A stretch of DNA of 64,000 nucleotides, from NCBI GenBank assembly GCA_945898275.1, contig CAMDHZ010000011.1, forward strand, positions 31,874-95,873. The letters are read 5' to 3'. Positions 4,149 through 58,690 of the stretch are shown piece after piece. Origin of the DNA: Chitinophaga pinensis. GTDB taxonomy: Bacteria > Bacteroidota > Bacteroidia > UKL13-3. The position numbers were made by a program, and so were the translations under genes. The notes beneath the pieces were generated by a model, which was not told the origin of the DNA, searched no databases, and saw nothing but the letters and a program-made list of their open reading frames with translations. Numbering within the stretch: the stretch's first letter is position 1; each line of letters starts with the position of its first letter.

Positions 4149-4493
4149 ATGCCTCGTTCAGTCAATTCCGTTGCGAGTAGAGCTCGCCGTAAAAAACTCC
4201 TCAAATTAGCCAAAGGTTATTGGGGTAAAAGAAAAAATGTATTAACAATAGCCAAACACTCTATAGAAAAGGGTTTAGGTTATGCATACAGAGACCGTAA
4301 ATCTAAGAAACGTAATTTTCGCAGTTTGTGGATAGTACGTATCAATGCTGGTTCTCGTATTCACGGTTTAAGTTATAGTCAATTTATGAATCTTGTTCAT
4401 AAAAAGGGTTTAGGTTTGAACCGAAAAGTATTAGCTGATATGGCAATGAATCACCCTGAAACATTTGCCGAAATCGTAAAATCTGTAAAATAG
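4149..4493 (+). CDS. rplT: 50S ribosomal protein L20
   Basis: [30 protein letters not shown]... is a canonical L20. Confidence 0.95.
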
Positions 4494-4514
4494 TATCATT
4501 CATTACGACTTTAA

Positions 4515-4551
4515 AACCTCCTTGGCTTCTTGCTAAGGAGGTTTTTTTTTG
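4515..4551 (+). terminator. rho-independent terminator after rplT
   Basis: Hairpin CCTCCTTGG-cttcttg-CTAAGGAGG followed by T9. Confidence 0.7.
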
Positions 4552-5045
4552 ATTGTTTTTCTATTTTAATTGGCGTCAAAAGTATTTTAATTGCTGGTTT
4601 AATGTTTAAGTTAAAAATACGCTTTTTTTATGCCTTTTTCTATCCTTTTTTTAGAATTATTTACATATAAAGAGGAAAAAAGCCTTTTGTATTGTTTTTA
4701 ATTCTCTAGGTATAAAACAACATTAGAAAAGCCTGATTTTATTGACCTTTGGGCTCATTTTTATTCAGGTAAATTGATATTCCACTTAATTAAACTACTA
4801 AAAGTTTTAACCTTTGGGTTAACAATCTTTTTGAGACAAATTCAATTGATTTTGTGTCATAGTGGAGTGTTTTTTCCCAAAATGGTTCTGGCTACTTTTC
4901 TTTCACCTTTGACTTATTTTTTTAAATCTTTGAAAATCAATTATTTGGTTCAAGATTTTTGCAATGGATGGATTTTTGATTCTATCCGCAGATGTCAAAT
5001 GCCTTCGAGGCAGTTGGAAGGTTCTAATTATAGATAATAAAACTT

Positions 5046-5519
5046 ATGAAAATAATTAAATTAAAACAAATGTTGAACAAGATTAATGAGAAGAAAATCA
5101 ATCGATTATTCTCAATTAACCTAGGTTTCTGCCTAGGCATGGCAGCATTTTTTGTGCTATTGCAATCAAATGATGCTTTCGCTCAGGAATCTGAAAGAAA
5201 AATTCATCCGCAATATTTACAAGCATCCCAATCTTTTAAATCAAAGGCGGGTCAAAACAGGGTAGCAGAATTTAATGCTATTGAAAGTTCATTAACTACT
5301 TTTATTGCTAGTGCTGATCCAAAACCTAGTTATGATTATTTTATTGGCGATTTTCAAATTAATACTTCAGAGTTAGTAACTCTTTTAGGGGAACCTGATG
5401 TGAAAATTTCAAATGGAATTTGGGTTTATGTTTTGAATCCAAGCCTAAACTGCAAGGTTTTGGTTGGGATTGACCCAAACGGATATTTAAGTTATATAAC
5501 ACGTAAAGAGTGTAATTAA
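5046..5519 (+). CDS. hypothetical secreted protein (157 aa)
   Basis: ORF with hydrophobic signal segment. It lies immediately upstream of the giant adhesin (19-nt gap) and is possibly co-transcribed. Confidence 0.4.
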   Translation: MKIIKLKQMLNKINEKKINRLFSINLGFCLGMAAFFVLLQSNDAFAQESERKIHPQYLQASQSFKSKAGQNRVAEFNAIESSLTTFIASADPKPSYDYFIGDFQINTSELVTLLGEPDVKISNGIWVYVLNPSLNCKVLVGIDPNGYLSYITRKECN

Positions 5520-5538
5520 TTATCTAAAAAAGAACGAA

Positions 5539-8500
5539 ATGAAAAATTCAATTTATAAATATTTGTTACTATTTGTTGTAGGACTTTTCTCCTTTTTAGG
5601 ATTAGAAGCGCAATATATCTTTACAACAAGTGCAAGCTCAAGTGTAAGTTCTGTTAATACCGGAAGCCAAATTACATACACATTCAATTACTCTACGGCA
5701 GCAAATACCACTTCGGGTCAAAACGTGGTTGCAGAATTAAACTTGCCAGATAATTTAATTCCATTTAATGAAAGTAACTTCAACAGCAATGTTTTGTTTG
5801 CTCCTACACAGATTTCATCGATTACCTATAATTCAGGTTTAAATAAAGTAACCATTAATTATGTTCATCCTTTGCCAGCAGGGGTTACTGGTCAACTTGA
5901 ATTAAAGTTGAAATATATAAATGGAACAACCCCTGATGGCTATGCTCCTGATTTATTTACAAAAGTAACTTTCACAAATGCAGAAGGTGGCAGCCCAGTT
6001 TATTCTGATACCTTAAATATAATTGCAATAGCTTCTTCTCGCTTTACTGTTTCTAAAATTAAGAATTCTGGCGGAGCCATTAACGATTTAACAATTTTCA
6101 AGATTTCAATTGGTAATAGCAGTCCAAATGCTGGTGCATTACAATTAGAAAATCCTGTTCTTAGAGATACGCTTCCAACAGGTGTTACTTTTGTAGAAGC
6201 AACCTCATTTTCAGGTTCAAACGCACCAACCTATGATCCTTTATCTAGAATCATTACTTGGACTTGGTCATCTGGACTATTCAACACAAATTATTCTGGT
6301 AATGCTTATGTGGCAGTAAAATATGAAGAACCTACTTATCAAATTGGATGGTCGGCGTGCAATTCTGCTACTTTAAGTGGCGATTATCCAATCCTTCCTT
6401 TAGGAACCACAGATTATACTCAAAAAACAGGTTCTATTTGTTTTGGCGTTGAGTCACCAACCCCAGATTTGGTTTGCACAGGAGGTGGAATTACTGCTGC
6501 CACTGCTAGTTGGTTGAATAAACACGTAATTTCAGGAACTAGTAATAATCAATTTGCTAATGGATGGTCTAACTTGGGTAATACAGAGTTGGATAGTGTA
6601 ATTTTAACTTACCAGATTGACAAAAGTGTAGATGTTACAACGGTTAAAATAGGAAAATTAGTTGACGGTTTAGCTAGGACTGGTAGAGATACAGTTGATT
6701 TGTTTTTTAAAACTAACCTAAATTCAAGCTGGACTTTTCAGGGAAATCATATCATTACAGCAGATAAAAACGTTTCATTTACTTCAATTTTGGGCGTAGG
6801 GGAATACTTAACAGAAGTAAAATTTAAGATTTATAGCCAGTTGCCAATTGGTGGAAGCCAAAGTTTAACCTATAACGGAAATGTTAGGACTTCAGCAACA
6901 AATGCTAAGGATGGCAGTCCAATTACAGAAGGAACTACCTATAATACCTCAAATCCAGGAGATGATGGAACAACCATTAGTAACAATTCTCAAGGCTCTT
7001 ATTACTATGGTGGAATTGGAACAAACTTTTCAAATTGCTCAGGTACGAGTGAAATTTTAATTTCAAGACCCGTATTCAATTCACCTTCAAAATCAATTCT
7101 TAATGGCTCTAGTTTTAGGGCTAGTGACACAATCAATTATAGATTTAGTGTTCAGTTAGGGGGTAACATGAGCGCACAGAATGTAGTTTTATATGATACT
7201 TTAGATAGCAGATTAACATATATAGCTGGTTCTTCTTCAATCGTAATTTCAGGTAATACAATTGTTCCAACAGTAAATGGTCAAATATTAATTTGGAACT
7301 TAGGAACTGTGCCCGCTAATGGGGCTTCATATACTGTTGATTTTAAAGCAGCAATTGCACCTGGTACAGCACCGGGTTCTATAAACAATAAGATGTTTAT
7401 GTCTGCTGATGCTCCAGCCATTTTTCCAAGAGGTACAAATGACAATGAAAGTACATCGGTTATAACTGCAGTTGCCCTAATTGCCTATAAAGCACAAAAT
7501 GGTTGTGACCCTGGTTTTGTATATTACCCTACCAATGCAATTACAAAGGAAGGTGATATTTTACGTTACAGAGTTACAGTGAAAAATCAAGGTAATGTTG
7601 CCGCAAAAGACTTAACCTTAATTGATGTTTTCCCTTTTATAGGTGATTCTAGAAATTCTCAATGGTTTGCTAATTTGGTTGGTCCAGTTATTTTAACCGA
7701 TCCAAATTCAACAGTTTATTATAATGCAGTTGCTAATCCATGTTATGCTGATTTTTCTCCAGCGGTTAACCCTCCTGGATGCAGTAATCCTGTTTGGACG
7801 CTTACTCCACCTTTAAATATTACTAGTGTAACTGCAATTAAAATTGTTAGGCCTAGTAATTTGACAGCCTTGGACAGCATAGAATTTGAATGGCCAATGC
7901 GTGTTCCTGTGGGCACACCTGCTAATATTCAAATGAACAATACGATTTATTATCAAGTGAGTAGAGCAGATATGGCTGGAACCACAGGTAGATTGTTACC
8001 TGCTGCTCCAAATCAAGTGGGTATGATTACCAGTTGTGCACCTATTTTAGGTTCAATTGGTGATTATGTTTGGATCGACCAAAATGGAAACGGCCTTCAG
8101 GATGAAGCTGCTAATAAAGGATTGAATGGAGTTAAGGTTTATTTATTTGGAACTGGTCCTGATAACCAAATTGGCGGTGGAGATGATGTTTTATTAGACT
8201 CAACCTTTACGGGTAATAATTTCGCTGGAAATCCAGGTTATTATAAGTTTGTTGATTTAGCAGATGGAAAGTACTTTGTTAAGTTCGAAACTAAATATGA
8301 TACCTACAGACTAACCCCAATTAGTAGTCAAAATCCTCAAACTGCCGGAAATAATGATGCAGATTCTAGCGGAAATTCTGGAGTAGTAACTATTAATGTT
8401 GCTGCTGGTGGTATTGATAAAGACAATCCAACAATTGATGCTGGTTATTATCCAATTAATACACCTGTTTGTACCGTTACTAATAATGTAAGTTGTTTTG

Positions 8501-11500
8501 GAAATGCAGATGGAAATGTTTCTGTTAGTGTGAGTGGTATTCTCCCTTACACATACCAGTGGAATACTGGACCTACAACAACAAGTTTAACTAACCTTCC
8601 AATAGGCTCTTATTCAGTTGTAGTTAACTATGGCTATGGCATTACCAGATCTTGCACCGCAACCGTTGCTCAACCAGCAGTTTTAGCTAGCACGTTAACT
8701 GATTCCAATAATATTAGCTGTAGAGGTGGTCAAAATGGTAGCATCAATATCTCTGTAAGCGGTGGCAATGTGCCTTATGGGTATACTTGGAAACGCAATG
8801 GTATCGATATTGTAAATACAAGCCAAGATTTAACCAATATCCTTCCAGGAGAATACATGGTTACGATCTTAGACAATAAAGGATGTTCTACCAGTAGAAC
8901 TGTTGTTTTGACCCAACCTTTGGATTCAGTTTCAACAGTAATCACTTCTTCAAATGTTTCTTGTAATGGTTTATTAGATGGCACAATTTCGCAAACAGTT
9001 AATGGCGGAACAACACCGTATAATTTTAGTTGGACAAAATCTGGTGATTTATTGTTTGGTTCAAGCAATGAAGATATTAATACCTTAGCAGCTGGTACTT
9101 ACTTCTTAGAAATCGAAGATAATAATGGCTGTTTATTACTAGACACCGTTAGCATAACACAACCAACTGTACTTTCTGCTACTTTAGATACAGCAATCGA
9201 CCAAGCTTGTAGTGCAATTCCTTCTGGCTCAATTGAAATTGATGTGGTAGGAGGAACAACGCCTTATACCTACAAATGGACAAATTCTTCTGCACCTGGT
9301 TATTTGCAAACTACACAAGATGTTTATAGTTTATATGGTTCTAACTACAGAGGGGTAGTAACTGATAACAATGGTTGTAGAGATACCGTTTTAGTTACAA
9401 TTGGAAGCCAAGTTGTAGAGGCAGAATTTGATGCAGATCCATTGAATTGTGATGGTACTTATGAATTAACCAATAACAGCATAGGTGCTGATAATTATAC
9501 TTGGTTAATCGAAGGGGTTGCTCCAACAGGTTTTAATAAGAGAGTTTATTGCACAACTACAGATACTTTAATCATTATGGATTTTAATCCGGGTGAATAT
9601 AGAATTACTTTAACAGTTAGCAGCAATGAAGGTTGTGTTGATTCATTAACAAAAAACATTATTGTTATGCCACAACCAATTGCCTTATTTGCTTATGATC
9701 CAATTCCTTGTACAAGCGGAATTAAGTTTACCAATTTATCGGTAAATGGTTCAATTACAACTTGGAATTTTGGAGATTTGGCTTCTGGTTTAAACAATAC
9801 AAGCACAAACAATAATCCTACGCATACTTTCAGTTCAAATGGAACATATAATGTAACATTGATTGCTGGCGATGCCGCTGGTTGTAAGGATACAATTGTT
9901 AGAGCAATTCCTGTTCAATCAGTTGGTATCACTCCAACTGCTGGATTTTCACACTCAATTCAAACTAGTGCTTGTGCAACCCGAGTATTGTTTAATAATA
10001 CTTCTTTAAACGCTAACAGTTACCTTTGGATTTTTGATGACGGTAGTACAAGTAATCTTGCAAATCCTAGTAAGGCTTATCCTGTTGCAGGAACTTATCC
10101 AGTTCAATTAATAAGCTTTAGTGCCTCGGGTTGTTCCGACACAATTGAACATTCTATTGTAATCGGTTCAAACTCTTATGGTGCGATAGCCAAGTTTGTT
10201 GCCAATGACTCGGTTCAGTGTTTGACAAATAATAGGTTTAATTTTATCAATCAATCTTTATACTACGGTCCAGGTTGGGTTTCTAATTACCAATGGAATT
10301 TTGGAGATGGTACAACCAATAATACCAACACATTTGTTTACAATAAACAATATGATACAGCAGGTAGTTACCAAGTTAGGTTAATCGCTATTTCTCCTAA
10401 TGGTTGTAGAGATACAGCTTATCAAATGGTTCGTGTTTTACCTGAGGCTGACCCAACTTTCATCATGACAATTGGATGTGGAATGGTTGCAGCCCTAGAA
10501 CATGCTGTTGATACAAATGTGAGCTATGTATGGAGTTTTGGTGATGGCAATTTTGCAAGCAACCACTTAGATAGCTTCTCTCATACATTTACCACTCCAG
10601 GTAAATACAACATCAGACTTACTACCTATACCCAAAATGGTTGCAGCACAACTTATAGTATTGGCACACTTGCCTCAGATGGCAGGTTGCCAGAACCAGA
10701 CTTTTTCTACTACGTTGCTTGTGCTAACAACATTCAATTTAAAAACACTTCTGAGTGGGGTTCAAGTTATATCTGGGATTTTGGAGATGGTTCTCCAGCT
10801 GACTCAAGTTACGAGCCATACCACAGCTATGCAGCTGCTGGAACCTATAACGTAACCCTTACAGTTTATAATTCTCCTCAGTGTTTAAAATCTATTACTT
10901 ATGCGGTTATTGCTCCTCAAGGTTTGGGAGTTAGATTACCTAGAGCAAGATTGGCTTATTGGGTTGAGCCTTGCACCAATATTACGCATGCAAGAGATAG
11001 CGCTTCAAAAGATGCAACAAATCTCAATTGGTACCTAAATAATACTTGGGTTGCAAATGGAGCAAATGTTGCCATTCCTGATCCAGGTGTTGGAATTTAT
11101 CAATTGAGAATGATTGCTGACAATGGCGTTTGTGCTGATACAACTTATGGTGGTTTTGAGCTACAAGAAAAGCCAGTAGCTGGTTTTGATTTTCTTTCAA
11201 ATACATGTTCAAATACCATCATGGTGAGCAGTAATTCTAAACATGCTACAAGCTACGAATGGAATTTTGACGATGCAGGAACTTTAACAAATACTTCTTA
11301 TGGCGCTTCGGCTTCTCACACCTTCAGTGCAAATGGTACTTATAATGTTAGGTTAATTGCCTACAACCTTACTGGATGTGCAGATACTTTGGTTCAAACC
11401 GTAACTGTTAACAATGGAAATAGTTTAAACAAAGCCAATTTTACTTATATCAACGGTTTATGCAATTGCAAATGCCAAAACACGGTTAAGTTTAACAACT

Positions 11501-12309
11501 TAACACCTGGAAGTGGAAATACTTATTTCTGGACTTTTGGAGATGGAACTTCTTCGGTTCAAGCCAACCCAAGAAAAGGATTCCCGGCAGCTGGAAATTA
11601 CATTGTTACTTTAACGTCTGTTGATAATACAGGTTGTATGAGCACCAAATCAATGAATGTAAATATTGATGCTTCTGTAAATGGCCCAAGTGCTGCATTT
11701 AGCACAGATTACCAAGTTCAATGTGTAGATAGTAACAGCTATAATTTCTATAATCAATCTGCTTACTTAGGTGCAGGTTGGATTAACAAATACTATTGGT
11801 ACTTTGGAGATGGTACAATGGATTCAACAAACTCATTCATCTATAACAAAAAATACACAACTGCTGGAAATTATGTTGTGACTTTAGTTGCTGTTGGAGT
11901 TGAAGGATGCAGAGACACCATGAGTATGTTTATTCAAGTTAGACCGCTTCCTTGCACAGGAGTGCTTAAACTTGTAAACTTACAAGATGGAACTAATTGG
12001 CACATAGATCCAGATATGGGTGGCATATTAAGCAGCTTGAAAGAAGTTAATACTGAACCAAACTTTAGCTTATATCCAAATCCTAATACTGGAAGTTTTG
12101 AAATAAATGTAAGCGGATTAAATGCTAGGGTTTATAATTTAGAAATAAGAGACATAGCTGGCAGGTTGCTTTTTGAACAACGAGAAATGCTAAACAATGG
12201 TTCAGAGAAGTCAATTTCTGCTAGTAACCTTTCAGATGGAGCCTATTTGGTTAGGATACTTACCGAAGAAGGACTGATAACAGAAAGAAAGTTTATTGTT
12301 GTAAAATAG
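5539..12309 (+). CDS. giant T9SS-secreted surface adhesin (2256 aa)
   Basis: Signal peptide, then DUF11-like N-terminal repeats and an SdrD B-like segment (GDYVWIDQNGNGLQDEAANKGLNGVKVYLF). Then a run of SprB-type repeats (CxG..DG.I...V.GG..PY.Y.W) and multiple PKD domains (W.FGDG motifs). The C-terminal type-A T9SS sorting domain is ...YPNPNTGSFEIN...GAYLVRILTEEG.... Confidence 0.85.
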   Translation: MKNSIYKYLLLFVVGLFSFLGLEAQYIFTTSASSSVSSVNTGSQITYTFNYSTAANTTSGQNVVAELNLPDNLIPFNESNFNSNVLFAPTQISSITYNSGLNKVTINYVHPLPAGVTGQLELKLKYINGTTPDGYAPDLFTKVTFTNAEGGSPVYSDTLNIIAIASSRFTVSKIKNSGGAINDLTIFKISIGNSSPNAGALQLENPVLRDTLPTGVTFVEATSFSGSNAPTYDPLSRIITWTWSSGLFNTNYSGNAYVAVKYEEPTYQIGWSACNSATLSGDYPILPLGTTDYTQKTGSICFGVESPTPDLVCTGGGITAATASWLNKHVISGTSNNQFANGWSNLGNTELDSVILTYQIDKSVDVTTVKIGKLVDGLARTGRDTVDLFFKTNLNSSWTFQGNHIITADKNVSFTSILGVGEYLTEVKFKIYSQLPIGGSQSLTYNGNVRTSATNAKDGSPITEGTTYNTSNPGDDGTTISNNSQGSYYYGGIGTNFSNCSGTSEILISRPVFNSPSKSILNGSSFRASDTINYRFSVQLGGNMSAQNVVLYDTLDSRLTYIAGSSSIVISGNTIVPTVNGQILIWNLGTVPANGASYTVDFKAAIAPGTAPGSINNKMFMSADAPAIFPRGTNDNESTSVITAVALIAYKAQNGCDPGFVYYPTNAITKEGDILRYRVTVKNQGNVAAKDLTLIDVFPFIGDSRNSQWFANLVGPVILTDPNSTVYYNAVANPCYADFSPAVNPPGCSNPVWTLTPPLNITSVTAIKIVRPSNLTALDSIEFEWPMRVPVGTPANIQMNNTIYYQVSRADMAGTTGRLLPAAPNQVGMITSCAPILGSIGDYVWIDQNGNGLQDEAANKGLNGVKVYLFGTGPDNQIGGGDDVLLDSTFTGNNFAGNPGYYKFVDLADGKYFVKFETKYDTYRLTPISSQNPQTAGNNDADSSGNSGVVTINVAAGGIDKDNPTIDAGYYPINTPVCTVTNNVSCFGNADGNVSVSVSGILPYTYQWNTGPTTTSLTNLPIGSYSVVVNYGYGITRSCTATVAQPAVLASTLTDSNNISCRGGQNGSINISVSGGNVPYGYTWKRNGIDIVNTSQDLTNILPGEYMVTILDNKGCSTSRTVVLTQPLDSVSTVITSSNVSCNGLLDGTISQTVNGGTTPYNFSWTKSGDLLFGSSNEDINTLAAGTYFLEIEDNNGCLLLDTVSITQPTVLSATLDTAIDQACSAIPSGSIEIDVVGGTTPYTYKWTNSSAPGYLQTTQDVYSLYGSNYRGVVTDNNGCRDTVLVTIGSQVVEAEFDADPLNCDGTYELTNNSIGADNYTWLIEGVAPTGFNKRVYCTTTDTLIIMDFNPGEYRITLTVSSNEGCVDSLTKNIIVMPQPIALFAYDPIPCTSGIKFTNLSVNGSITTWNFGDLASGLNNTSTNNNPTHTFSSNGTYNVTLIAGDAAGCKDTIVRAIPVQSVGITPTAGFSHSIQTSACATRVLFNNTSLNANSYLWIFDDGSTSNLANPSKAYPVAGTYPVQLISFSASGCSDTIEHSIVIGSNSYGAIAKFVANDSVQCLTNNRFNFINQSLYYGPGWVSNYQWNFGDGTTNNTNTFVYNKQYDTAGSYQVRLIAISPNGCRDTAYQMVRVLPEADPTFIMTIGCGMVAALEHAVDTNVSYVWSFGDGNFASNHLDSFSHTFTTPGKYNIRLTTYTQNGCSTTYSIGTLASDGRLPEPDFFYYVACANNIQFKNTSEWGSSYIWDFGDGSPADSSYEPYHSYAAAGTYNVTLTVYNSPQCLKSITYAVIAPQGLGVRLPRARLAYWVEPCTNITHARDSASKDATNLNWYLNNTWVANGANVAIPDPGVGIYQLRMIADNGVCADTTYGGFELQEKPVAGFDFLSNTCSNTIMVSSNSKHATSYEWNFDDAGTLTNTSYGASASHTFSANGTYNVRLIAYNLTGCADTLVQTVTVNNGNSLNKANFTYINGLCNCKCQNTVKFNNLTPGSGNTYFWTFGDGTSSVQANPRKGFPAAGNYIVTLTSVDNTGCMSTKSMNVNIDASVNGPSAAFSTDYQVQCVDSNSYNFYNQSAYLGAGWINKYYWYFGDGTMDSTNSFIYNKKYTTAGNYVVTLVAVGVEGCRDTMSMFIQVRPLPCTGVLKLVNLQDGTNWHIDPDMGGILSSLKEVNTEPNFSLYPNPNTGSFEINVSGLNARVYNLEIRDIAGRLLFEQREMLNNGSEKSISASNLSDGAYLVRILTEEGLITERKFIVVK
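8490..9360 (+). repeat. array of about 7 SprB-type ~80-aa repeats inside the adhesin
   Basis: Recurrent C(F/N/R)G..(D/N)G.I...V.GG..PY.(Y/F).W spacing in the translated sequence. Confidence 0.5.
10170..11945 (+). repeat. duplicated PKD-domain modules inside the adhesin
   Basis: Protein-level duplication: QCLTNNRFNFINQSLYYGPGWVSNYQWNFGDGTTNNTNTFVYNKQYDTAGSYQVRLIAISPNGCRDTAY versus QCVDSNSYNFYNQSAYLGAGWINKYYWYFGDGTMDSTNSFIYNKKYTTAGNYVVTLVAVGVEGCRDTMS, with further W.FGDG copies between them. Confidence 0.6.
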
Positions 12310-12329
12310 ATTTATTGGATTAAACAAAA

Positions 12330-12366
12330 AAAGCCGCCTCAAGCTTGCTTGAGGTGGCTTTTTCTA
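12330..12366 (+). terminator. rho-independent terminator after the adhesin gene
   Basis: AGCCGCCTCAAGC-ttg-CTTGAGGTGGCT hairpin followed by TTTTTC. Confidence 0.7.
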
Positions 12367-12459
12367 TTTAGCGAGTTATTCAGTTGAAAGACTTCCATCA
12401 TAGACTATTGGCGCATGAGATAAAATAATTACCTTCGCAGCACTAAGCACTAGTTTTAA

Positions 12460-50417: not shown

Positions 50418-50425
50418 TAAAAATC

Positions 50426-50463
50426 AAAAAAAAACCCGATAAGCTAAGCCTATCGGGTTTTTC
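50426..50463. terminator. bidirectional intrinsic terminator (3' of the M43 protease gene)
   Basis: Hairpin CCCGATA-agctaagcc-TATCGGG flanked by A9 upstream and T5 downstream on the plus strand. Confidence 0.7.
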
Positions 50464-50478
50464 TATATTATCTTACTG

Positions 50479-52740
50479 TTACTCAACCACTATTTTATGT
50501 GATAATTTGTTACCACCAACATTTAATTCAACAAAATATAGCCCAGAACGAAGATTCATGGTGTTTCTATCTAGCTCTAATTTCTGAATTCCGGCATTTT
50601 GGGTACCACTAAATACAGTTCCCATTTCTTTACCTGTTACATCATATACCTTTACCAATACCTCTTCTTTGTTCGCTAATTCATAGCTTAATTGGGTAGC
50701 ATTGTTAAATGGATTAGGTTGTGCTGTAAACTTTAAATATTCTGCTAATAATTCTTGGCTCAAGCCTGTTGTTAAGCCAACACGAACATTATCTATGTAA
50801 AAGTTATTACCACCAGCATATTCAAATTCAACTTTGAAAAGAACATTATCTGTTTTCGGTATAGCATTTCCATTAATTCTAACCAATTTCCATTTCGATT
50901 TATCAGATGGTATAAAATCTATGGTGCTAGCCAAAGTTCCAGCTGTACCTGTGCCTATTGTCGAAATAGCGCTGCTTCCAACTGTTGACCTAGTTTGCCA
51001 TGTTTTACCACAATCTATAGAAGAATAAACTCTTAGTTGTTCTTGTGTGTTGCCACCACCAACATTTGCGCTCAAAGTGCCTTGGGCAAAGGCATAATAA
51101 AATTCAAAATAAGGATTTGTAATGCCTGTAAAATCAAAACTAGGCGAAATTAATGAAGAAACTGTTCCTACAGATGACAAAGCATTAAAAGGGTCTCTCA
51201 ACAATCGCATACTAGCATTGTTTTCATACGAAATTGGAAAACGTGCAAATTGATTTTTTGGGTTTTCATGAACAAATCTCCATCCTTTTTCTTTCCAATT
51301 ATTTTGATACCACCAATCGGCGGTGTAATTATCCTTAGGTAAATTGGCAGATTTTGGTTGAATAGTTACATAATCATTTAATAAGGTTGTTGTTGTTCCA
51401 TTCGGTCCAGTTACTTTCAAGGTTACATCATAAGTTCCTGGGGCGTCATACTGAATTTGAGGTGGGTTCAAACCAGTAAATGTTGCAGGTGTGCCACCTT
51501 CAAAAGTCCATTCATGAGTGCTAATAGTGCCTCCATAAGAAAAATTTAGGAAACTAATTTTTTGACCAGCACAGGTAACAGGAGTTTGAGTATTAAAAGC
51601 TGCTACTGGCGGACAAGTTGCAGGTCCGTCAATAACACCAGTAAAACGTAAATTTTCTTCTGACCAAAGTGTTTTGCGAATATCATCCAAAACCTTGTGC
51701 ATACGCCCCTTTTGTTCTAAAGTAAACATGTTACTTGCACAATTTCCAATAAAATAATCCATGTAAGCTTCTTGTAAATCTGGTCTATCTGGCTTTTCAG
51801 TTGAACAAGTATTGAAACTTTTATTGTTACAACGATTACGTAAAGGTTCAGTAGAGCTCGGATTGAAATAAGTAGGAGGGGTATCCATTACTCCATCGCC
51901 ATCTAATCCGCAACTGTCTGTTGAAATTTGAAAAGGATGATATAAACCTAACCAATGTCCAACTTCATGGGTTGATGTTGTAACATTAGGTGTTTGTCCT
52001 GGTTGAGAAGTTCCTGTGTTTCCAAACTCGTTATGAATTACCATGATACCATCTGTTGAAGCTCCACCTCCAAAACCAAATGGAAACTGGGCGTATCCTG
52101 CAATACCGATAGAATTACCTCTATTAATGCTTCTAACCACCCAAATATTAAAATAACGCTTGGTATCCCAAACACTAGTTTTCTTTAAATCATCATTACC
52201 TTTACTTGCTAAAGGAGTATGAATTCTAACTATGCCATTGGTGCAATTTCCTTGGGGATCTTTTTTTGCGAGTCTAAACTCAATTTCTGTATCAGCAGCT
52301 AAGTTTTTATAGTCATAATAAAAGCTATCAGTACTCTCAGGGCTTGCCTTGAACCAACCTGCTCTGCGATTTACCGTATCATTAACATTATTTCTAAATG
52401 ACCTATTTAAAAAATTAATTTCACTTAAAACTTGAGCCTCACTAATGTTTTCACTTCCATTATTATGGAAAACATGCACTACAACAGGAATAATGTACTT
52501 TGGAGCCGCTTTTTTACCAAGTTGTTGATTTGTTTTGTAATCCTCTGGTTTATAAGTTGCCTGAAACTGTCTGTAATCAGCCTCAAATTTAGCTTTGGCA
52601 TCTTTAATTGAAGGATTCTGTTTGATAAGCGTTTCTAAATGTTCGTCTGTACCGCAGCGGTGTTGCTGGGCCATCACTACGTGGCCACTTATTGCCAGCG
52701 CACCAATCAGTAATAGTTTTTTCATATTTAGCCTTTTCAT
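50479..52740 (-). CDS. secreted M43 (pappalysin/cytophagalysin-type) zinc metalloprotease with PKD domain and T9SS C-terminal sorting domain
   Basis: Signal peptide; HEVGHWLGLYHPF extended zinc motif characteristic of M43; C-terminal ...GLYFVELNVGGNKLSHKIVVE T9SS CTD. Confidence 0.85.
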   Translation of the reverse strand: MKRLNMKKLLLIGALAISGHVVMAQQHRCGTDEHLETLIKQNPSIKDAKAKFEADYRQFQATYKPEDYKTNQQLGKKAAPKYIIPVVVHVFHNNGSENISEAQVLSEINFLNRSFRNNVNDTVNRRAGWFKASPESTDSFYYDYKNLAADTEIEFRLAKKDPQGNCTNGIVRIHTPLASKGNDDLKKTSVWDTKRYFNIWVVRSINRGNSIGIAGYAQFPFGFGGGASTDGIMVIHNEFGNTGTSQPGQTPNVTTSTHEVGHWLGLYHPFQISTDSCGLDGDGVMDTPPTYFNPSSTEPLRNRCNNKSFNTCSTEKPDRPDLQEAYMDYFIGNCASNMFTLEQKGRMHKVLDDIRKTLWSEENLRFTGVIDGPATCPPVAAFNTQTPVTCAGQKISFLNFSYGGTISTHEWTFEGGTPATFTGLNPPQIQYDAPGTYDVTLKVTGPNGTTTTLLNDYVTIQPKSANLPKDNYTADWWYQNNWKEKGWRFVHENPKNQFARFPISYENNASMRLLRDPFNALSSVGTVSSLISPSFDFTGITNPYFEFYYAFAQGTLSANVGGGNTQEQLRVYSSIDCGKTWQTRSTVGSSAISTIGTGTAGTLASTIDFIPSDKSKWKLVRINGNAIPKTDNVLFKVEFEYAGGNNFYIDNVRVGLTTGLSQELLAEYLKFTAQPNPFNNATQLSYELANKEEVLVKVYDVTGKEMGTVFSGTQNAGIQKLELDRNTMNLRSGLYFVELNVGGNKLSHKIVVE

Positions 52741-52804
52741 TTGACGGGCAAATTAATAATTTATTTATATAAGTCAACCCCATAGGTTGGTTGGTTGCGT
52801 CAAA

Positions 52805-53296
52805 TTATGCTCTTTTTTGTTCCCAAACCTCCAAATTAGTCATTTTCCCATCTTCAAAAACCAATCGCACTGCGGTGTTTACTTTCTGGAAGCCATGATT
52901 TCCGCAAGCTCCAGGGTTTATCAACAACCAATTGTTTATTGGGTCTTTCATAATACGTAAAATATGAGAATGACCGCAAATCACTAAATCTGGTTTATAA
53001 TCTTTAATTATATTCCTAAAACTAGGTGAATAATACTTTGGATATCCGCCAATATGGATAATAAAAACTTTTACTCCCTCTATTTCAAAGTTTAAATATT
53101 CCGGATATTTTTTTCTAATAGGTTGCCCATCTATATTTCCATAAACTCCTCTAATAGGTTTCAGCTTTTCTAATTTTTCGTCAACTCCAGGTCCCCAATC
53201 TCCAGCATGCCAAATCTCGTCACAATCTGCAAAAAAACTTTCTAAAGCTGAATTGAAAAATCCATGTGTGTCGCTTAGAATTCCTATTCGTTTCAT
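52805..53296 (-). CDS. metallophosphoesterase (YfcE/MJ0936 family)
   Basis: MKRIGILSDTHG...GDWG...GNID...GHSH calcineurin-like motifs, 163 aa. Confidence 0.8.
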   Translation of the reverse strand: MKRIGILSDTHGFFNSALESFFADCDEIWHAGDWGPGVDEKLEKLKPIRGVYGNIDGQPIRKKYPEYLNFEIEGVKVFIIHIGGYPKYYSPSFRNIIKDYKPDLVICGHSHILRIMKDPINNWLLINPGACGNHGFQKVNTAVRLVFEDGKMTNLEVWEQKRA

Positions 53297-53320
53297 AATT
53301 TTTTATTCATCTTTGAACCT

Positions 53321-53926
53321 ATGATTAACTTAACAATAATAATCATTGCAGTTACTGCAATAATAAGTATTCAAGCTTTTAGTAATCACAAAATGATGAA
53401 TCGGTTTATTTTATATCCTTATCAAATGGAGCGAGAAAAGCAGTGGTTTAGGTTTTTATCAAGCGGTTTTTTGCATGCAGATTGGATGCATTTAATAATC
53501 AATATGTTTGTTTTATATAGCTTCGGCTCAATTGTAGAAACCTATTATGATTACTTTTTTGGTTCAGCCTCAAAAATTATTTTTCTACTTTTATATCTAA
53601 GTAGTATTGTAGCAGCCTCTGCAAGTAGTTTTTATAAAAATAAGGACAACCCCAGTTATCGATCTTTAGGAGCTTCAGGGGCTGTTTCTGCAATTACTAC
53701 AACTAGTATTCTATTCGCACCTATGGCTAAAATTTACCTTTATGGTATCATTGGTTTGCCAAACATTGTGGCTGGAGTTTTATATTTGATTTATTCTCAA
53801 TATGCTTCGCGTAATTCAAACGATAACATTAATCATGAAGCTCATTTTTATGGTGCTGTTTATGGAGTATTATTTACGCTTGTTGCAAAACCAAGAATCT
53901 TTTTATATTTCTTGAACCAATTTTAA
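53321..53926 (+). CDS. rhomboid-family intramembrane serine protease
   Basis: Six TM helices, catalytic GASGAVSA (GxSG) and conserved His in the AHFYGAVYGV helix. Confidence 0.8.
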   Translation: MINLTIIIIAVTAIISIQAFSNHKMMNRFILYPYQMEREKQWFRFLSSGFLHADWMHLIINMFVLYSFGSIVETYYDYFFGSASKIIFLLLYLSSIVAASASSFYKNKDNPSYRSLGASGAVSAITTTSILFAPMAKIYLYGIIGLPNIVAGVLYLIYSQYASRNSNDNINHEAHFYGAVYGVLFTLVAKPRIFLYFLNQF

Positions 53927-54504
53927 AACATAAATCCAACTCTTATCATTAATGGATTAGCATAAAAGCTATTTTCATCATGCAAGACATCATATAAGGC
54001 AAATATAAAAACCCCTGTTTTTCCTCCATATCCGCCACCTAATAGAAGTTGGTTGCTCCAAAAACGTTCGTAATTGTTTTTTGTTAAATTATAACGTTCA
54101 TAATTAATGGGTTGCCATTCTCCATGCGCAAAAATTGAGGGCAAAACTTGCTGTCTTGCAAAAATTATGGGTCCATAAATATTGGTAGAATATTTTTGAC
54201 CTAAATTGTTTTTAACTTGGTAATAAATATAAGTTGCTCCAACACCTGCCATGGTTTTTGGTAGAAAATAATAACCAACCATCGGTTGAAGCATTAAAAA
54301 ACTAACACCATTAGAAAGAGTACCACCTACATTTCCTCCAAACGTTAACTTATCTTTATCAAATCCCTTCTTATCTTTTTCATAAGTTTTTAGTTCTTCT
54401 CTCTTCTTAGCCTCCTCTTCATCTAACTGTTGCACTTTTCTTTGGGCTGAACCAAGAGAGCTAAAACCTATTAATAGACCTAATAAGATGACAACTTTTT
54501 TCAT
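53923..54504 (-). CDS. small outer-membrane beta-barrel protein candidate
   Basis: Signal peptide MKKVVILLGLLIGFSSLGSAQ, a K/E-rich linker, then alternating-hydrophobic strands with C-terminal Phe (..IRVGFMF). Start taken at M23 of the ORF-track ORF. Confidence 0.45.
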   Translation of the reverse strand: MKKVVILLGLLIGFSSLGSAQRKVQQLDEEEAKKREELKTYEKDKKGFDKDKLTFGGNVGGTLSNGVSFLMLQPMVGYYFLPKTMAGVGATYIYYQVKNNLGQKYSTNIYGPIIFARQQVLPSIFAHGEWQPINYERYNLTKNNYERFWSNQLLLGGGYGGKTGVFIFALYDVLHDENSFYANPLMIRVGFMF

Positions 54505-54585
54505 ATTGGGCAAAAATAAATGAATTAAATCAATAAAATTAAGCATATGTTTTATTAATTCGCACTGCATTCAACGCTCAAAAAC

Positions 54586-55656
54586 ATGAATAAAGTACAC
54601 AATTTCTCTGCTGGTCCGGCAATTTTACCCCAATCAGCTATTGATGCTAGTATCCAAGCGCTTCAAAACTTTGGAGGAACTGGTTTATCATTAATCGAAG
54701 TTTCTCACAGAGGCAAGGAGTTTGAAGCCGTAGTTGCAGAAGCCTGCAACCTTGTGAAGGAAATTCTTAATCTTGGAGCAGATTATGAAGTGATTTTTCT
54801 ACAAGGTGGTGCAAGTTTGCAGTTTGATATGATTCCAATGAACTTCCTTGCTCCAGGCAAAACCGCTGCTTACGTTAATACTGGAGTTTGGGCAAGCAGA
54901 GCCATAAAAGAGGCAAAAATGTTTGGCGATGTTAATGTTTTGGCTTCAAGTGAAGACAATAATTTCTCATACATACCAAAAGATTATAGTATTCCTGCTG
55001 ATGCAGCCTATTATCATTGCACAAGTAATAACACCATTTATGGAACTGAAATGTTTGCCTTTCCAGAAACCAATGTGCCTATGATTTGTGACATGAGTTC
55101 AGATATTTTTAGCAGACCTTTTGATGCTTCAAAATTCGATATGATTTATGCTGGTGCACAAAAAAATATGGGTCCTGCTGGTACAACGCTGGTAATTCTG
55201 AAAAAGTCGTTTTTAGAGAAGGCAAATGCTAAAGTACCAACCATGCTTAATTATAAAATTCATGTTGAAAACGGAAGTATGTATAACACGCCTAGCGTTT
55301 TTGCCATTTTTGTTTGCATGCATACTTTGCGTTGGATTAAAGAAATTGGTTTAGAAGCAATGGGAGTTAGAAACAAAGCAAAAGCAGATTTGCTTTATGC
55401 AGAAATTGATAGAAATTCTATGTTTAAAGGAACTGTTGCAACTGAAGATAGAAGTAGAATGAACGTTAATTTTGTTTTGACCGATAAATCTCATGAAGAG
55501 CCTTTTTTAAAGTTCTGTTCAGAAAGAAATTTGAGCGGACTTAAAGGACATCGTTCTGTAGGTGGATTAAGAGCTTCTTTATATAATGCCCTAGAAATTG
55601 AAAGTGTTCAGGCATTGGTTGATGCAATGCAAACCTATGAAAAATTACAAGCCTAA
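54586..55656 (+). CDS. serC: phosphoserine aminotransferase
   Basis: MNKVHNFSAGPAILPQS... is a canonical SerC N-terminus with PLP-fold pattern. Confidence 0.9.
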   Translation: MNKVHNFSAGPAILPQSAIDASIQALQNFGGTGLSLIEVSHRGKEFEAVVAEACNLVKEILNLGADYEVIFLQGGASLQFDMIPMNFLAPGKTAAYVNTGVWASRAIKEAKMFGDVNVLASSEDNNFSYIPKDYSIPADAAYYHCTSNNTIYGTEMFAFPETNVPMICDMSSDIFSRPFDASKFDMIYAGAQKNMGPAGTTLVILKKSFLEKANAKVPTMLNYKIHVENGSMYNTPSVFAIFVCMHTLRWIKEIGLEAMGVRNKAKADLLYAEIDRNSMFKGTVATEDRSRMNVNFVLTDKSHEEPFLKFCSERNLSGLKGHRSVGGLRASLYNALEIESVQALVDAMQTYEKLQA

Positions 55657-55675
55657 AATTTAAATTACAAATCGT

Positions 55676-56644
55676 ATGATAAGAATATTAGCAAATGATG
55701 GCATCGACCAAAGCGGAAAGTTTTTGTTGGAAACGGCAGGATATGAAGTTGTAACACAAAAAATTGCACAAGAAGACTTAATTAAAGAATTAAACAATTT
55801 TGATGCAATTTTAGTTAGATCAGCTACCAAAGTAAGAAAAGATTTAATGGATGCTTGTCCAAATCTAAAGTTAATTGGCAGAGGAGGAGTAGGTATGGAC
55901 AATATCGATATTGAATATGCTAAAAACAAAGGAATCAAAGTTGTAAATACGCCTGCTTCATCCTCTGTAAGTGTGGCTGAATTAGTATTTGCTCATTTAT
56001 TTAGTGGTATAAGATTTCTGCAAATTACCAATAGAATAATGCCAAATGAAGGCAATACAAAATTTGGAGACCTTAAAAAGGTATCAAGCAATGGAACCGA
56101 GTTGCAAGGTAAAACCATGGGTATTTATGGTTTTGGAAGAATTGGACAAGAGGTCGCAAAAATGGCAATTGGTTTAGGAATGAAGGTTCTTGCATTTGAT
56201 CCATATGTAGAGCATGTTGAAATTGCTTTAAACTTGCCAATGCTTGGTTCAAACCAAAGAATAAAAGTTCAGTTGAATACTGTAAGCGAACAGTCTGTAG
56301 TTGCACAAAGTGATTTTATTACTTTTCATATTCCTTTTAATGAAGGTTCAAAAGCTCCAATAGATAAAGATGTAATTGCAAGAATGAAAAAAGGAGTAGG
56401 CTTAATTAATTGTTCTAGAGGTGGAGTAATTTCAGAAGCTGACTTACTTGAAGCACTTAATTCTGGTCAGGTAGCCTTTGCTGGTTTAGATGTTTTTGAG
56501 AAAGAACCTCCAGTTAACATGGCAATCCTACAACACCCACATGTGAGTTTAAGTCCACATATTGGAGGTAGTACAAAGGAAGCTCAAAATAGAATCAGTA
56601 TTGAATTAGCTGAAAAGGTAATTGAGTTTTTTAAAAATAATTAA
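55676..56644 (+). CDS. serA: D-3-phosphoglycerate dehydrogenase (short form)
   Basis: D-isomer 2-hydroxyacid dehydrogenase NAD-binding GxGxxG (GIYGFGRIGQ) and catalytic-domain motifs. It lies adjacent to serC. Confidence 0.8.
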   Translation: MIRILANDGIDQSGKFLLETAGYEVVTQKIAQEDLIKELNNFDAILVRSATKVRKDLMDACPNLKLIGRGGVGMDNIDIEYAKNKGIKVVNTPASSSVSVAELVFAHLFSGIRFLQITNRIMPNEGNTKFGDLKKVSSNGTELQGKTMGIYGFGRIGQEVAKMAIGLGMKVLAFDPYVEHVEIALNLPMLGSNQRIKVQLNTVSEQSVVAQSDFITFHIPFNEGSKAPIDKDVIARMKKGVGLINCSRGGVISEADLLEALNSGQVAFAGLDVFEKEPPVNMAILQHPHVSLSPHIGGSTKEAQNRISIELAEKVIEFFKNN

Positions 56645-56655
56645 TTCAATTACAA

Positions 56656-57915
56656 ATGGCAATAGTTAAACCCTTTGCAGCTTTGCGTCCAAACAAGGAC
56701 AAGGCAAAAGATGTTTCATCGCCACCATTTGATGCGGGAGCCAAGGATTTGGCCTTTCATGAAATCATGAATAATCCGTATTCTTATTTAAATGTAGTAA
56801 AACCTTATTTACATTTTAAAGGAGAAAAAAAGAATCCAGAAAAGCATTTTCCTTCAGGTTTAGCCTTTTTGAAAAAGCTTATTCAAGAAGGAATCATGAT
56901 TAAAGAAGATGCGCCTGCCTTTTATATTTATAGATTAATTAAGGGAAGTCAGGCTTATGCGGGAATAATTGCCGCTGCATCAGTTGATGATTATTTAGAA
57001 AACAGAATCCTAAAACATGAAAACACGCTAACTGAGAAGCAACTTGAAATTGCAGAACACATTAGTTTTTTTAACAACTTAGGTAATCCAGTTTTACTTA
57101 CATATCCAGATGATCAATCCATTGATATGCTAATTGATCAATACATCATGAAGCATGTTCCTGAATATAATTTTATTAGCCAAGACCAAATAAAACATAA
57201 TTTATGGGTAGTAAGTGAGCAAGCTGATATTGAATTATTAGAAACTAGGTTTGCAGGTATTGAAAAGCTATATATTGCTGATGGGCATCATAGGTCTGCT
57301 GGCTCTGCAGAGTTTTGTTTGCAAAAGAGAAAAGGGAACGAAAACTATACTGGATCGGAGAGTTTTAACTTTTTTCCTGTTTGCCTAATTCCATTTAGTC
57401 GTCTCACGATTTTCGAATACCATAGGTTAGTAAAGGATAAGGAAAAAGTTGATGATAACAATTTTCTAGAAAAAATACGGGAATTTTTTAACGCAACTCC
57501 AAGTGGACATTTGCCAGTTCAACCTTTACACAAGAAAGAATTTGGGATTTACTTTCACAACAAAGCTTATTTACTTCAATTAAAACCTGAAATTGAAGCA
57601 AGCTTAAAAGGCACCTTAGATAACCTAGATGTTAGTATTGTTGAACAATATATTTTAAATAATATTTTCGGTATTTTAGATAGCAAAACAGACCATCGCC
57701 TTTCTTTTATGGATGGCGGAAAAGGAATTGGACATTTGCAGGAAGCTGTTGATTCTGGTGAGTTTGACTTGGCTATCACATTATATCCTACAAGTATTGA
57801 AGAAGTAAAAAAGGTTGCGGAAGAAAACCTTATCATGCCGCCTAAATCAACTTGGATTGAACCCAAAATAAGGACTGGTTTAATTGTATTAGACCATTCG
57901 GAAGATAATGAATAG
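56656..57915 (+). CDS. DUF1015-family protein
   Basis: MAIVKPFAALRPNKD... is a typical DUF1015 N-terminus. This family is a conserved serA/serC neighbour. Confidence 0.65.
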   Translation: MAIVKPFAALRPNKDKAKDVSSPPFDAGAKDLAFHEIMNNPYSYLNVVKPYLHFKGEKKNPEKHFPSGLAFLKKLIQEGIMIKEDAPAFYIYRLIKGSQAYAGIIAAASVDDYLENRILKHENTLTEKQLEIAEHISFFNNLGNPVLLTYPDDQSIDMLIDQYIMKHVPEYNFISQDQIKHNLWVVSEQADIELLETRFAGIEKLYIADGHHRSAGSAEFCLQKRKGNENYTGSESFNFFPVCLIPFSRLTIFEYHRLVKDKEKVDDNNFLEKIREFFNATPSGHLPVQPLHKKEFGIYFHNKAYLLQLKPEIEASLKGTLDNLDVSIVEQYILNNIFGILDSKTDHRLSFMDGGKGIGHLQEAVDSGEFDLAITLYPTSIEEVKKVAEENLIMPPKSTWIEPKIRTGLIVLDHSEDNE

Positions 57916-58690
57916 CAAAGAACAAAAATTAGCTGCATTTGGTCGCTTGTTAGACATCATGGACGAACTTCGAGAAAAATGTCCATGGGATAAAAAGCAA
58001 ACTAATGAAACACTTCGACATTTAACTATCGAAGAGACCTATGAATTATCAGATGCCTTGCTTAAAAATGATACCCAAGAAATAAAAAAGGAACTTGGAG
58101 ATGTTATGTTGCATATAGTGTTTTATGCGCGCATTGCAAGCGAACAAAATCACTTTGATATTGCAGATGTTTTAAATGTATTGTGCGAAAAACTCATCGT
58201 TAGACATCCGCATATTTATGGAAATGTAGTTGCAGAAACAGAAGAACAGGTAAAGGAAAATTGGGAACAAATAAAGCTTAAGGAAGGAAATAAATCTGTG
58301 TTAAGTGGAGTTTCCAAAGGCACACCTTCCATTGTAAAGGCTTATCGAATGCAAGAGAAAGCTGCACAAGTGGGTTTCGACTGGAACACAGCAGATCAAG
58401 TTTGGGATAAGGTAGAGGAAGAATTAATTGAACTGAAAAACGAGTTGGTTCAACCCGATAACCAAAAGAAAAGCCAAGAAGAATTTGGTGATTTATTATT
58501 TGCCTTAATCAATCTTGCGCGTAAATCAGGTTTGAACCCAGACGATGCATTAGAATTTACCAACACAAAATTCTTGAATCGATTTATGTTTATTGAGTCT
58601 AGGGCAAAGGATATTGGCAAAAGTTTAACAGAAATGAGCCTCGAGGAAATGGATGAGATTTGGAATGAAGCCAAACTAAACCAACTTTGA
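57908..58690 (+). CDS. mazG: nucleoside triphosphate pyrophosphohydrolase MazG
   Basis: Two MazG EExxE-type repeats (TIEETYELSDAL..., EEELIELKNEL...EEFGDLLFALINLAR). Confidence 0.85.
   Translation: MNSKEQKLAAFGRLLDIMDELREKCPWDKKQTNETLRHLTIEETYELSDALLKNDTQEIKKELGDVMLHIVFYARIASEQNHFDIADVLNVLCEKLIVRHPHIYGNVVAETEEQVKENWEQIKLKEGNKSVLSGVSKGTPSIVKAYRMQEKAAQVGFDWNTADQVWDKVEEELIELKNELVQPDNQKKSQEEFGDLLFALINLARKSGLNPDDALEFTNTKFLNRFMFIESRAKDIGKSLTEMSLEEMDEIWNEAKLNQL

Follow-up and report, generated by a model that had tools for sequence, protein, structure and literature searches.

The DNA analyzed here is a 64-kb stretch (the window; bases 31866-95865 of the 138.8-kb metagenome contig ENA ERZ27280281 k141_1812372), which carries many dispersed copies of a short sequence word, GGTTYRAACC. 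Judging from its genes for PorX, a SusC-like protein and proteins with type IX secretion system (T9SS) sorting domains, together with thrS, sbcCD, and recN, the host is a Bacteroidota with a T9SS. Contigs in Logan ERR3719164 are 100% identical to the window and so reveal no polymorphism. We also used an extended contig of 83 kb, which comprises the window with 9.4 kb added on its left side and 9.9 kb on its right. An initial annotation had described the word as a strongly over-represented, near-palindromic decamer in genes and spacers on both strands and had likened it to the DNA uptake sequences (DUS) and uptake signal sequences (USS) of other bacteria.

The over-representation was borne out. 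We counted 17 exact copies of GGTTYRAACC in the window, whereas 100 dinucleotide-preserving shuffles contained 0.27 on average and at most 2. We also tallied k-mers on both strands and scored them against Markov-3 and Markov-5 backgrounds. With both backgrounds, the strongest outlier in the window at k = 8, 9, 10, 11, and 12 belonged to the GGTTYRAACC family, and the motif thus remains the top outlier against a higher-order background. GGTTCAAACC was found 16 times (expected 0.34 with Markov-3 and 1.19 with Markov-5), the 12-mer TTGGTTCAAACC 11 times (0.06 and 0.28), and the 8-mer TTGGTTCA 41 times (7.5 and 20.8). The Markov-5 expectation for TTGGTTCA is too high, because sub-words of the motif itself inflate the background. 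Across this lineage and its relatives, the excess is 5 to 150 times expectation, with TTGGTTCA as the core that is usually extended to TTGGTTCAAACC.

The flanks, ~19.4 kb outside the window, hold nine copies of TTGGTTCA and six decamers, a density equal to that of the window. When 12-mers in the 83 kb were sorted by mismatch, 14 were perfect, 17 one-off, 44 two-off, and 147 three-off, compared to 0.09, 1.8, 18.8, and 139, respectively, in Markov-3 simulations. USS show a like grading, in which the excess of perfect copies lies far above that of one-off copies, and the latter above that of two-off copies. The 8-mer occurs ~0.6 times and the 10-mer 0.26 times per kb; USS and DUS occur roughly 0.8-0.9 times per kb. 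Extrapolation from the 83 kb gives a whole-genome total of about 500-1700 copies.

The constant part that emerged when all copies were oriented is the asymmetric TTGGTTCA, followed most often by AACC and then by R-A-A. Copies that differ from the 12-mer at one base do so, with few exceptions, at position 2, 10 (A to C), 11, or 12; positions 1 and 5 are altered in single copies each, and no change was found at positions 3, 4, or 6-9. Among the 23 copies of GGTTNNAACC in the 83 kb, the center is CA/TG in 22, CG in one, and TA in none. The half-site TTGGTT (195 vs 177 expected) and the mirror word TTGGTTTG (15 vs 15.0) are at expectation. The palindromic look is secondary and derives from the AACC extension, which is specific to a subclade described below; the form in this inner subclade, TT(Y)GGTT-CA-AACC(R)AA, is partly dyad-symmetric. 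Both the center counts and outer lineages that lack the AACC arm set the iterated unit apart from the perfect palindrome of HIP1 (highly iterated palindrome 1)-type motifs. Thus, the excess of the decamer stands, but "near-palindromic decamer" is an incomplete description of a unit in which an asymmetric 8-mer is conserved and palindromic centers are rare. Extension to a longer imperfect palindrome, said initially to hold for many copies, is complete (the full 14-mer TTGGTTYRAACCAA) in only three.

Since the core is asymmetric, its orientation can be tested. Over nine loci of 12-83 kb, 70 copies were in the + and 62 in the - orientation. No locus was skewed, and copies in the two orientations are interspersed over stretches of a few hundred bases, in agreement with the absence of strand bias noted initially. 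The coefficient of variation of the spacing was 0.89, against 0.97 for random placement (p = 0.27, even-spacing test).

Most copies lie within genes: 38 of the 41 copies of TTGGTTCA in the window (93%) are in open reading frames (ORFs) and three are intergenic, in a window of which ~5% is non-coding. The copies in ORFs occupy five of the six frames and both gene orientations. In the sixth, empty frame, TGAACCAA would create a TGA stop, and the numbers of copies on the same strand as the gene and antisense to it (23:15) follow the ~3:2 ratio of stop-free frames. We shuffled synonymous codons among the 51 ORFs, preserving protein sequences and codon usage. The shuffled ORFs contained 7.3±2.4 copies of TTGGTTCA vs 38 observed, 0.6 decamers vs 15, and 0.25 12-mers vs 10; as had been argued from the spread over frames, orientations and a few intergenic sites, codon usage does not explain the copies. 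The I/V-G-S-N hexapeptide repeat of LpxA and LpxD is encoded by TTGGTTCAAAC in the window genome vs ATTGGCAGCAAT and similar codons in relatives. As the same peptide is specified by different codons, the pressure acts on DNA.

The flanks of the copies are mutually unrelated, and an independent repeat finder placed the end of similarity after ~17-21 nt. Unique flanks, together with orthologous alignments that contain no indels, indicate that the copies are not a miniature inverted-repeat transposable element (MITE). We found no block-inserted shared unit of at least 30-40 nt lying mostly between genes, as would be expected of MITEs or repetitive extragenic palindromic (REP) elements. The copies are therefore independent short sites, as assumed initially, rather than pieces of a longer dispersed repeat.

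We aligned a 12.5-kb syntenic block containing a PKD protein gene, recN, a TonB receptor gene, and sbcCD from six lineages, which range from 93% to 66% identity to the window. Copies and non-copies at orthologous sites differ by substitutions only. Some sites are private to L290, L293, or L295, which indicates ongoing gains within each lineage. Full conservation is 3-8 times as frequent at motif sites as it is for all same-length words or for neighboring words. Between the window and L293, three of six decamers are conserved vs a baseline of 0.08 (p = 0.0085), and between L293 and L290, eight of ten GGTTCAA sites are conserved vs 0.15 (p = 9e-6). Comparison of the window with L286 (93% identity), using L290 as the outgroup, yielded too few gain or loss events to polarize.

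One relative, L294 (ENA ERZ4209337 NODE_2314), is poor in the motif, with one decamer and four copies of TTGGTTCA in 21.7 kb, although its sister L295 (81% nucleotide identity) is not. At positions where L295 or other lineages have perfect copies, L294 carries the decayed versions GGTTTAAACC, TTGGTTCGAACC, and TTGGATCAAACC. The process that maintains the motif may have been lost in L294, as far as the thin data from one locus allow.

The motif is restricted to a clade. With PorX as the anchor, a scan of one genome from each GTDB species gave 80 loci, of which the nearest were from freshwater-lake metagenome-assembled genomes (MAGs) at 73-85% identity and the rest, from Flavobacteriales, Sphingobacteriales, and others, were at 63% or less. 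The decamer is essentially absent from these 80 loci, the only exceptions being a single decamer in L036 and another in L052. A PorX scan of metagenomes gave at least 80 loci; among the matches listed, identity was at most 62% except for L086 at 77%. The decamer was not found in the metagenome loci, and the one metagenome locus (L095) among the 15 densest loci listed had none. In all, the motif is absent from ~150 other Bacteroidota loci.

Closer relatives, gathered through RecN and PorX homologues with 12-22 kb per lineage, gave a graded picture. The decamer was counted seven times in the window block (0.11 expected), five times each in L286 (RecN 96%; 0.07), L290 (RecN 90%; 0.09), and L293 (RecN 84%; 0.10), four times each in L295 (RecN 74%; 0.10) and L296 (the genome of L295, PorX 92%; 0.06), and three times in L297 (PorX 85%; 0.08). 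It was found once each in L294 (RecN 76%; 0.07) and L298 (PorX 82%, RecN 57%; 0.05) and was lacking in L002 (PorX 84%) and L299 (PorX 81%). The 8-mer reached further. Observed and expected numbers of TTGGTTCA were 13 and 2.5 in L290, 14 and 2.1 in L293, 9 and 1.9 in L295, 8 and 1.6 in L296, 12 and 1.5 in L002 (shuffles 0.88), and 12 and 1.6 in L298 (shuffles 1.27), a 5-9 fold enrichment; 5 and 0.8 in L299 (~6 fold); 9 and 2.5 in L297 (~3.6 fold); and 4 and 1.6 in L294. Thus, enrichment of the core extends to all sampled relatives down to ~81% PorX or ~57% RecN identity and is weakest in two of them, and there is no TTGGTTCA excess in relatives at PorX 73-78% (L003-L007, L086).

Enrichment of the decamer is confined to an inner subclade (L286, L290, L293, L295, L296, and L297), and the AACC extension occurs only at PorX identities of at least 85%. 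Outer lineages have A or G as the ninth base and variable bases thereafter. Provisionally, the 8-mer core characterizes a clade about as deep as a family, and the AACC(GAAA) extension characterizes its inner part; these clade and dialect boundaries are provisional because each lineage is represented by only 12-22 kb. The variation in the extension looks like the "dialects" of DUS. Viral contigs scanned for TTGGTTCAAACCAA contained single chance matches only and no contig with multiple copies, a result that is uninformative on phages of this host.

Three classes of hyperabundant oligomers are recognized: Chi, uptake sequences, and HIP1 (PMC4390886). Uptake sequences have so far been found only in Neisseriaceae and Pasteurellaceae (bioRxiv 10.1101/2025.10.24.684340). 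The closest known system is formed by the Neisseriaceae DUS (GCCGTCTGAA and its dialects) and the Pasteurellaceae USS (AAGTGCGGT types), together called DUES. Like these, the motif is a short asymmetric word of 8-12 nt, here at ~0.3-0.6 per kb, that occurs equally often in both orientations, lies in genes only in stop-free frames, is made by point substitutions (synonymous ones included), shows an excess of perfect over near-perfect copies, and is shared across a family-level clade, in which the core is conserved and the flanks differ between lineages. Unlike them, it belongs to an uncultured freshwater lineage of Bacteroidota, is unrelated in sequence, is not concentrated in intergenic inverted repeats or terminators, and is partly dyad-symmetric in its inner-subclade form. 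HIP1 (GCGATCGC, in cyanobacteria) is likewise hyperabundant in coding and non-coding DNA, with lineage-specific variants and conserved sites, but is a perfect palindrome tied to GATC/CGATCG methyltransferases, whereas the core here is asymmetric and has no visible link to a methyltransferase. Chi (e.g., GCTGGTGG) and the FtsK-orienting polar sequences (KOPS) and architecture-imparting sequences (AIMS) are also asymmetric 8-mers that are several-fold over-represented; unlike the motif, which has no polarity at nine loci, they are co-oriented with replication. REP elements and bacterial interspersed mosaic elements (BIMEs), Correia elements, and dRS3/NTS share the high copy number, and those of Neisseria have been linked to transformation (NTS being the target of the Ssn nuclease). 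These are 20-150-nt hairpins that are mostly intergenic, in contrast to an 8-15-nt word in reading frames that forms no stable hairpin.

The likeness to DUS and USS proposed initially agrees with the excess and density of the motif, its strand neutrality, its origin by substitution at the DNA level, its restriction to a clade with dialect-like variation, and the preferential conservation of its sites, but not with the absence of a concentration in intergenic inverted repeats or terminators. We tentatively favor the reading that the motif is a DUS/USS-like tag of self-DNA, clade-specific and orientation-neutral, which would be kept up by biased uptake or recombination; we would put this somewhat short of an even chance. 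We infer that the word is read in the course of DNA uptake or transformation. In such a model, a sequence-specific DNA-binding component of an uptake or recombination pathway would prefer fragments bearing the word. Point mutations that improve the match would give rise to alleles that are taken up and recombined more often among conspecifics, so that copies would accumulate where the protein sequence tolerates them and would be retained once present. The core TTGGTTCA(R) would have grown to ~15 nt, TTGGTTCAAACC-R-A-A, in the subclade of the window. Natural competence occurs in Riemerella, a member of the Flavobacteriaceae, and R. columbina shows a preference for its own DNA; a k-mer search in that study returned A-rich words only and identified no specific uptake word (PMC7965970). 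Competence and preference for own DNA in Riemerella make an uptake word in Bacteroidota plausible. In its fullest form, the reading would be of DUES-type self-recognition, the first outside Proteobacteria, with a TTGGTTCA(AACC) tag, a receptor unrelated to ComP/ComN, evolving dialects, and at least one loss; this combination is possible but more doubtful.

Several points weigh against an uptake tag. Copies are spaced in a way that is indistinguishable from random and are not enriched in intergenic DNA. Among the repeats listed, there are no close inverted pairs downstream of genes, and there is no association with terminators, whereas about half of DUES in Neisseriaceae and Pasteurellaceae lie in predicted terminators (bioRxiv 10.1101/2025.10.24.684340). 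The 83 kb contain no gene for ComEC, ComEA, DprA, a pilin-type protein, or a ComP/ComN-type receptor, which we count as uninformative rather than negative; these genes, as well as those for a DNA methyltransferase or Vsr, are also lacking in the ~190 kb of relatives' loci, a sample that covers roughly 3% of the genomes. In addition, selection for intracellular binding predicts site conservation and lineage restriction equally well. The word could be HIP1-like, a site that an intracellular protein (for example, a nucleoid-organizing factor, or an orphan methyltransferase and its partner) binds or modifies and that is under chromosome-level selection independent of uptake. As reported for HIP1, coding and non-coding DNA are occupied in proportion to their shares, and sites are conserved between genomes above control words, a feature that was used to infer selection on HIP1 (PMC5861425); moreover, the partial dyad symmetry of the inner-subclade form would suit a dimeric binder. 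Yet the ancestral conserved unit is asymmetric, as TTGGTTCA is enriched without AACC in L002 and L298, palindromic centers are not favored, and TTGGTT and TTGGTTTG are at expectation. The 83 kb also lack a DNA methyltransferase, and GTTTAAAC and TTCGAA are not avoided. We regard a HIP1-like role as unlikely, though far from negligible.

The substitutional origin of the copies would also fit a neutral bias of mutation or repair, in which very-short-patch-like or templated correction converts near-matches into a functionless word, and gain or loss of the repair enzyme could account for the lineage-specific excess and the apparent decay in L294. However, the 150-fold excess of the 12-mer would require recognition of ~10-12 positions, and known biases of the very-short-patch type give modest excesses. 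Transition neighbors are not depleted (TTGGTTTA, 17 vs 19.0; TTGGTTTG, 15 vs 15.0), although the power of this comparison is low. No Vsr or Dcm-type gene was seen in the 83 kb, and a gene of the uracil-DNA glycosylase (UDG) family is kept even in motif-poor L294, leaving repair bias improbable. A polar recombination or segregation signal of the Chi (RecBCD/AddAB) or KOPS/AIMS type is far less probable still. An asymmetric 8-mer enriched 5-8 fold is within the size and excess range of Chi, but Chi and KOPS are strongly co-oriented with replication, and the absence of skew over nine loci, with alternation over short ranges, contradicts such a signal and effectively rules it out. Least credible of all is that the copies are a dispersed mobile repeat (MITE- or REP-like), a transposon footprint, or the result of a recurrent peptide motif or codon usage. 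Although a few copies do encode the I-G-S-N repeat of LpxA and LpxD, this explanation is already refuted by the unique flanks with short similarity, by orthologous sites without insertions, by the five frames and both orientations, and by the synonymous shuffle. The remaining probability belongs to explanations outside those considered here.

Three further candidates were rejected. GGTTCAAACC resembles the tRNA T-arm consensus GGTTCRANYCC; on inspection, a 7-nt T-loop with G53:C61 and G52:C62 would need one base more than the word has, and copies lie on both strands and in all frames. As for restriction avoidance, a single transition separates the word from the PmeI site GTTTAAAC, and the TTCGAA core lies within the word; neither site is avoided. 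The Bacteroidetes -7 promoter box, TAnnTTTG, fits only two copies, and copies are intragenic.

In the searchable literature, we found no paper that describes this word as a genomic motif and none on uptake sequences in Bacteroidota, in keeping with the initial remark that nothing of the kind was described for the clade. As far as that literature shows, what is new is the sequence of the word, the phylum in which it occurs, its placement within coding DNA, and the series of dialects that can be seen, while lineage-specific hyperabundant oligomers as such are known. Sequence-biased uptake is known from two proteobacterial families, and molecular drive vs selection has been argued from those alone. 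If the motif is an uptake tag, it would be an independent third case from another phylum, and its graded dialects, gains, and apparent loss would provide a comparative system for distinguishing drive from selection. Phylogenetic profiling of motif-positive vs motif-negative genomes could then reveal a new kind of DNA receptor, transformation among conspecifics would shape the genomes of common freshwater Bacteroidia, and the word, added to donor DNA, would be a practical handle for genetics once isolates exist. If its role is intracellular instead, the motif would be a second puzzle of the HIP1 type, this time with an asymmetric core.

The sites in the window are listed below, together with neighboring features. 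The 16 exact copies of the initial annotation were essentially right, but a copy starting at 11391 had been missed; most coordinates hold, with 29868, 36225, and 39044 corrected to 29866, 36215, and 39043. The 8-9-mer variants it reported exist at small offsets, with GGTTCAAAC starting at 10165, 15244, 18273, 26732, and 26930 and TTTGAACC at 23889, 29698, and 36812. The site at 53304 is CTTTGAACC, and TTTGAACC starts at 53312. The 6.8-kb adhesin gene, which was initially said to lack the motif, contains an exact 12-mer at 11389, 9-mers at 6214 and 10165, and three copies of TTGGTTCA.

Copies of the motif and neighboring features in the window (positions are those of the window;., no strand assigned)
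Feature	Coordinates	Strand	Context
Perfect 12-mer TTGGTTCAAACC	11389..11400	+	2256-aa SprB/PKD adhesin gene, frame L-V-Q
Perfect 12-mer	13689..13700	-	Intergenic, after ccmE and before ccmF; extends to TTGGTTCAAACCGAAAC
Perfect 12-mer, full 14-mer TTGGTTCAAACCAA	17873..17884	+	DUF5686/CarboxypepD_reg gene
Perfect 12-mer (14-mer)	18755..18766	-	DUF5686/CarboxypepD_reg gene, orientation opposite to the 17873 copy
Perfect 12-mer	24422..24433	-	lpxD; orthologous site in L002 is TTGGTTCAAGCC
Perfect 12-mer	29864..29875	+	396-aa ORF without Pfam match
Perfect 12-mer	36215..36226	-	sbcD; orthologous position in L290 is TTGGTTCAAACT
Perfect 12-mer (TTTGGTTCAAACCGAAA)	39847..39858	+	TonB-dependent receptor gene; kept in 5/6 aligned lineages; CG center in L294
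Perfect 12-mer	43134..43145	-	PKD/T9SS-tail protein gene; kept in L286 and L290
Perfect 12-mer, TTTGGTTCAAACCGGAA	44121..44132	-	PKD/T9SS-tail protein gene; identical in 6/6 aligned lineages (66-93% overall identity)
Perfect 12-mer (14-mer)	56244..56255	+	2-hydroxyacid dehydrogenase gene
TCGGTTCAAACC, exact decamer, one mismatch to 12-mer	4413..4424	-	rplT
GGTTCGAACC, sole copy with perfectly palindromic CG center	20858..20867	.	PAS histidine-kinase gene
TAGGTTCAAACC	33771..33782	-	sbcC; TTGGTTCAAACCGAAA here in L290 and L293
TAGGTTCAAACC	39041..39052	+	TonB-dependent receptor gene; common to L286 only
TGGGTTCAAACC	51463..51474	+	M43 peptidase/T9SS gene
TGGGTTCAAACC	58529..58540	-	MazG-family gene
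TTGGTTCAAAAC, one mismatch	23887..23898	-	HD-domain gene
TTGGTTCAAACG	26730..26741	+	lpxA; codes I-G-S-N of the hexapeptide repeat; other codons in relatives
TTGGTTCAAACT	26928..26939	+	lpxA (V-G-S-N); other codons in relatives
TTGGTTCAACCC variant (A10 to C)	27315..27326	+	lpxA
TTGGTTCAAACA, one mismatch	29696..29707	-	
TTGGTTCAACCC variant	34360..34371	+	sbcC; TTGGTTCAAACC here in L293
TTGGTTCAACCC variant	40051..40062	-	TonB receptor gene; kept in L286, L290, and, except for the second base (TAGGTTCAACCC), L293
TTGGTTCAACCC variant	58445..58456	+	MazG-family gene
29 more sites, exact TTGGTTCA or GGTTCAAAC core, 2-4 mismatches to 12-mer	11..62053	.	Starts: 11, 695, 4945, 6212, 9056, 10163, 12050, 15242, 18271, 24569, 24755, 28179, 28629, 28688, 30855, 34668, 39545, 39988, 40883, 41012, 41154, 47315, 52346, 53559, 53909, 54444, 59977, 60085, 62042
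Adhesin gene	5539-12309		2256-aa SprB/PKD/SdrD_B protein with T9SS C-terminal sorting domain
Adhesin internal repeats (family D1)	10288-11812		~240-270 nt periodicity
sbcC, sbcD, UDG-superfamily gene	32269-37562		Adjacent; recN 4 kb away
UDG-family gene	36819-37562		
Longest-ORF call	38429-40780		Overlaps the next call by 155 nt; TonB-dependent receptor, 728 aa in relatives
Longest-ORF call	40626-41321		DUF4290 protein, 227 aa in relatives
Low-GC (0.30) block	44634-50478		Glycosyltransferase, FkbM, and Methyltransf_11 genes and a 618-aa ORF without Pfam match
Methyltransf_11/21 genes	44686-46267		Part of the glycosyltransferase island; no DNA methyltransferase

The low-GC block is motif-poor, with one copy of TTGGTTCA and no decamers in 5.8 kb. 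Its gene content differs among close relatives: it is absent between the DUF922 and PKD genes of L286, and in L290 and L295 it is rearranged and has gained one more gene. It looks like a variable surface-polysaccharide island. The DNA-repair neighborhood of sbcC, sbcD, the UDG-superfamily gene, and recN is kept in all relatives examined and has no evident link to the motif. For the two overlapping ORFs, the calls in relatives are shorter, so that translation probably starts downstream of the listed GTG and TTG codons.

Other words and arrays were noted in relatives. In L003-L007, which lack the motif, a word of their own (TTGCGCAA, AATCTTCC) was considered and rejected, as its excess reflects local tandem clusters and a palindrome counted twice. 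L006 carries three tandem copies of TTGCGCAAT at 10-nt spacing (14287-14315) in an operator-like arrangement, and this cluster, with the double counting, accounts for the apparent TTGCGCAA excess in L005-L007. L009, from MAG binchicken_co385_33 of a distant member of the Flavobacteriales, contains AGGAATTG 12 times on both strands of 21.5 kb (218-21486) vs ~2 expected; this could be another lineage-specific abundant word, of marginal significance after multiple testing. L002 contains a short tandem array of ~4-5 copies of a 15-nt unit, ATACGCTCAGTAAAA, at 11542-11615, and in L299, a G-rich 7/28-nt array (GAGATGG, ~27 copies) lies directly after porX at 11552-11768.

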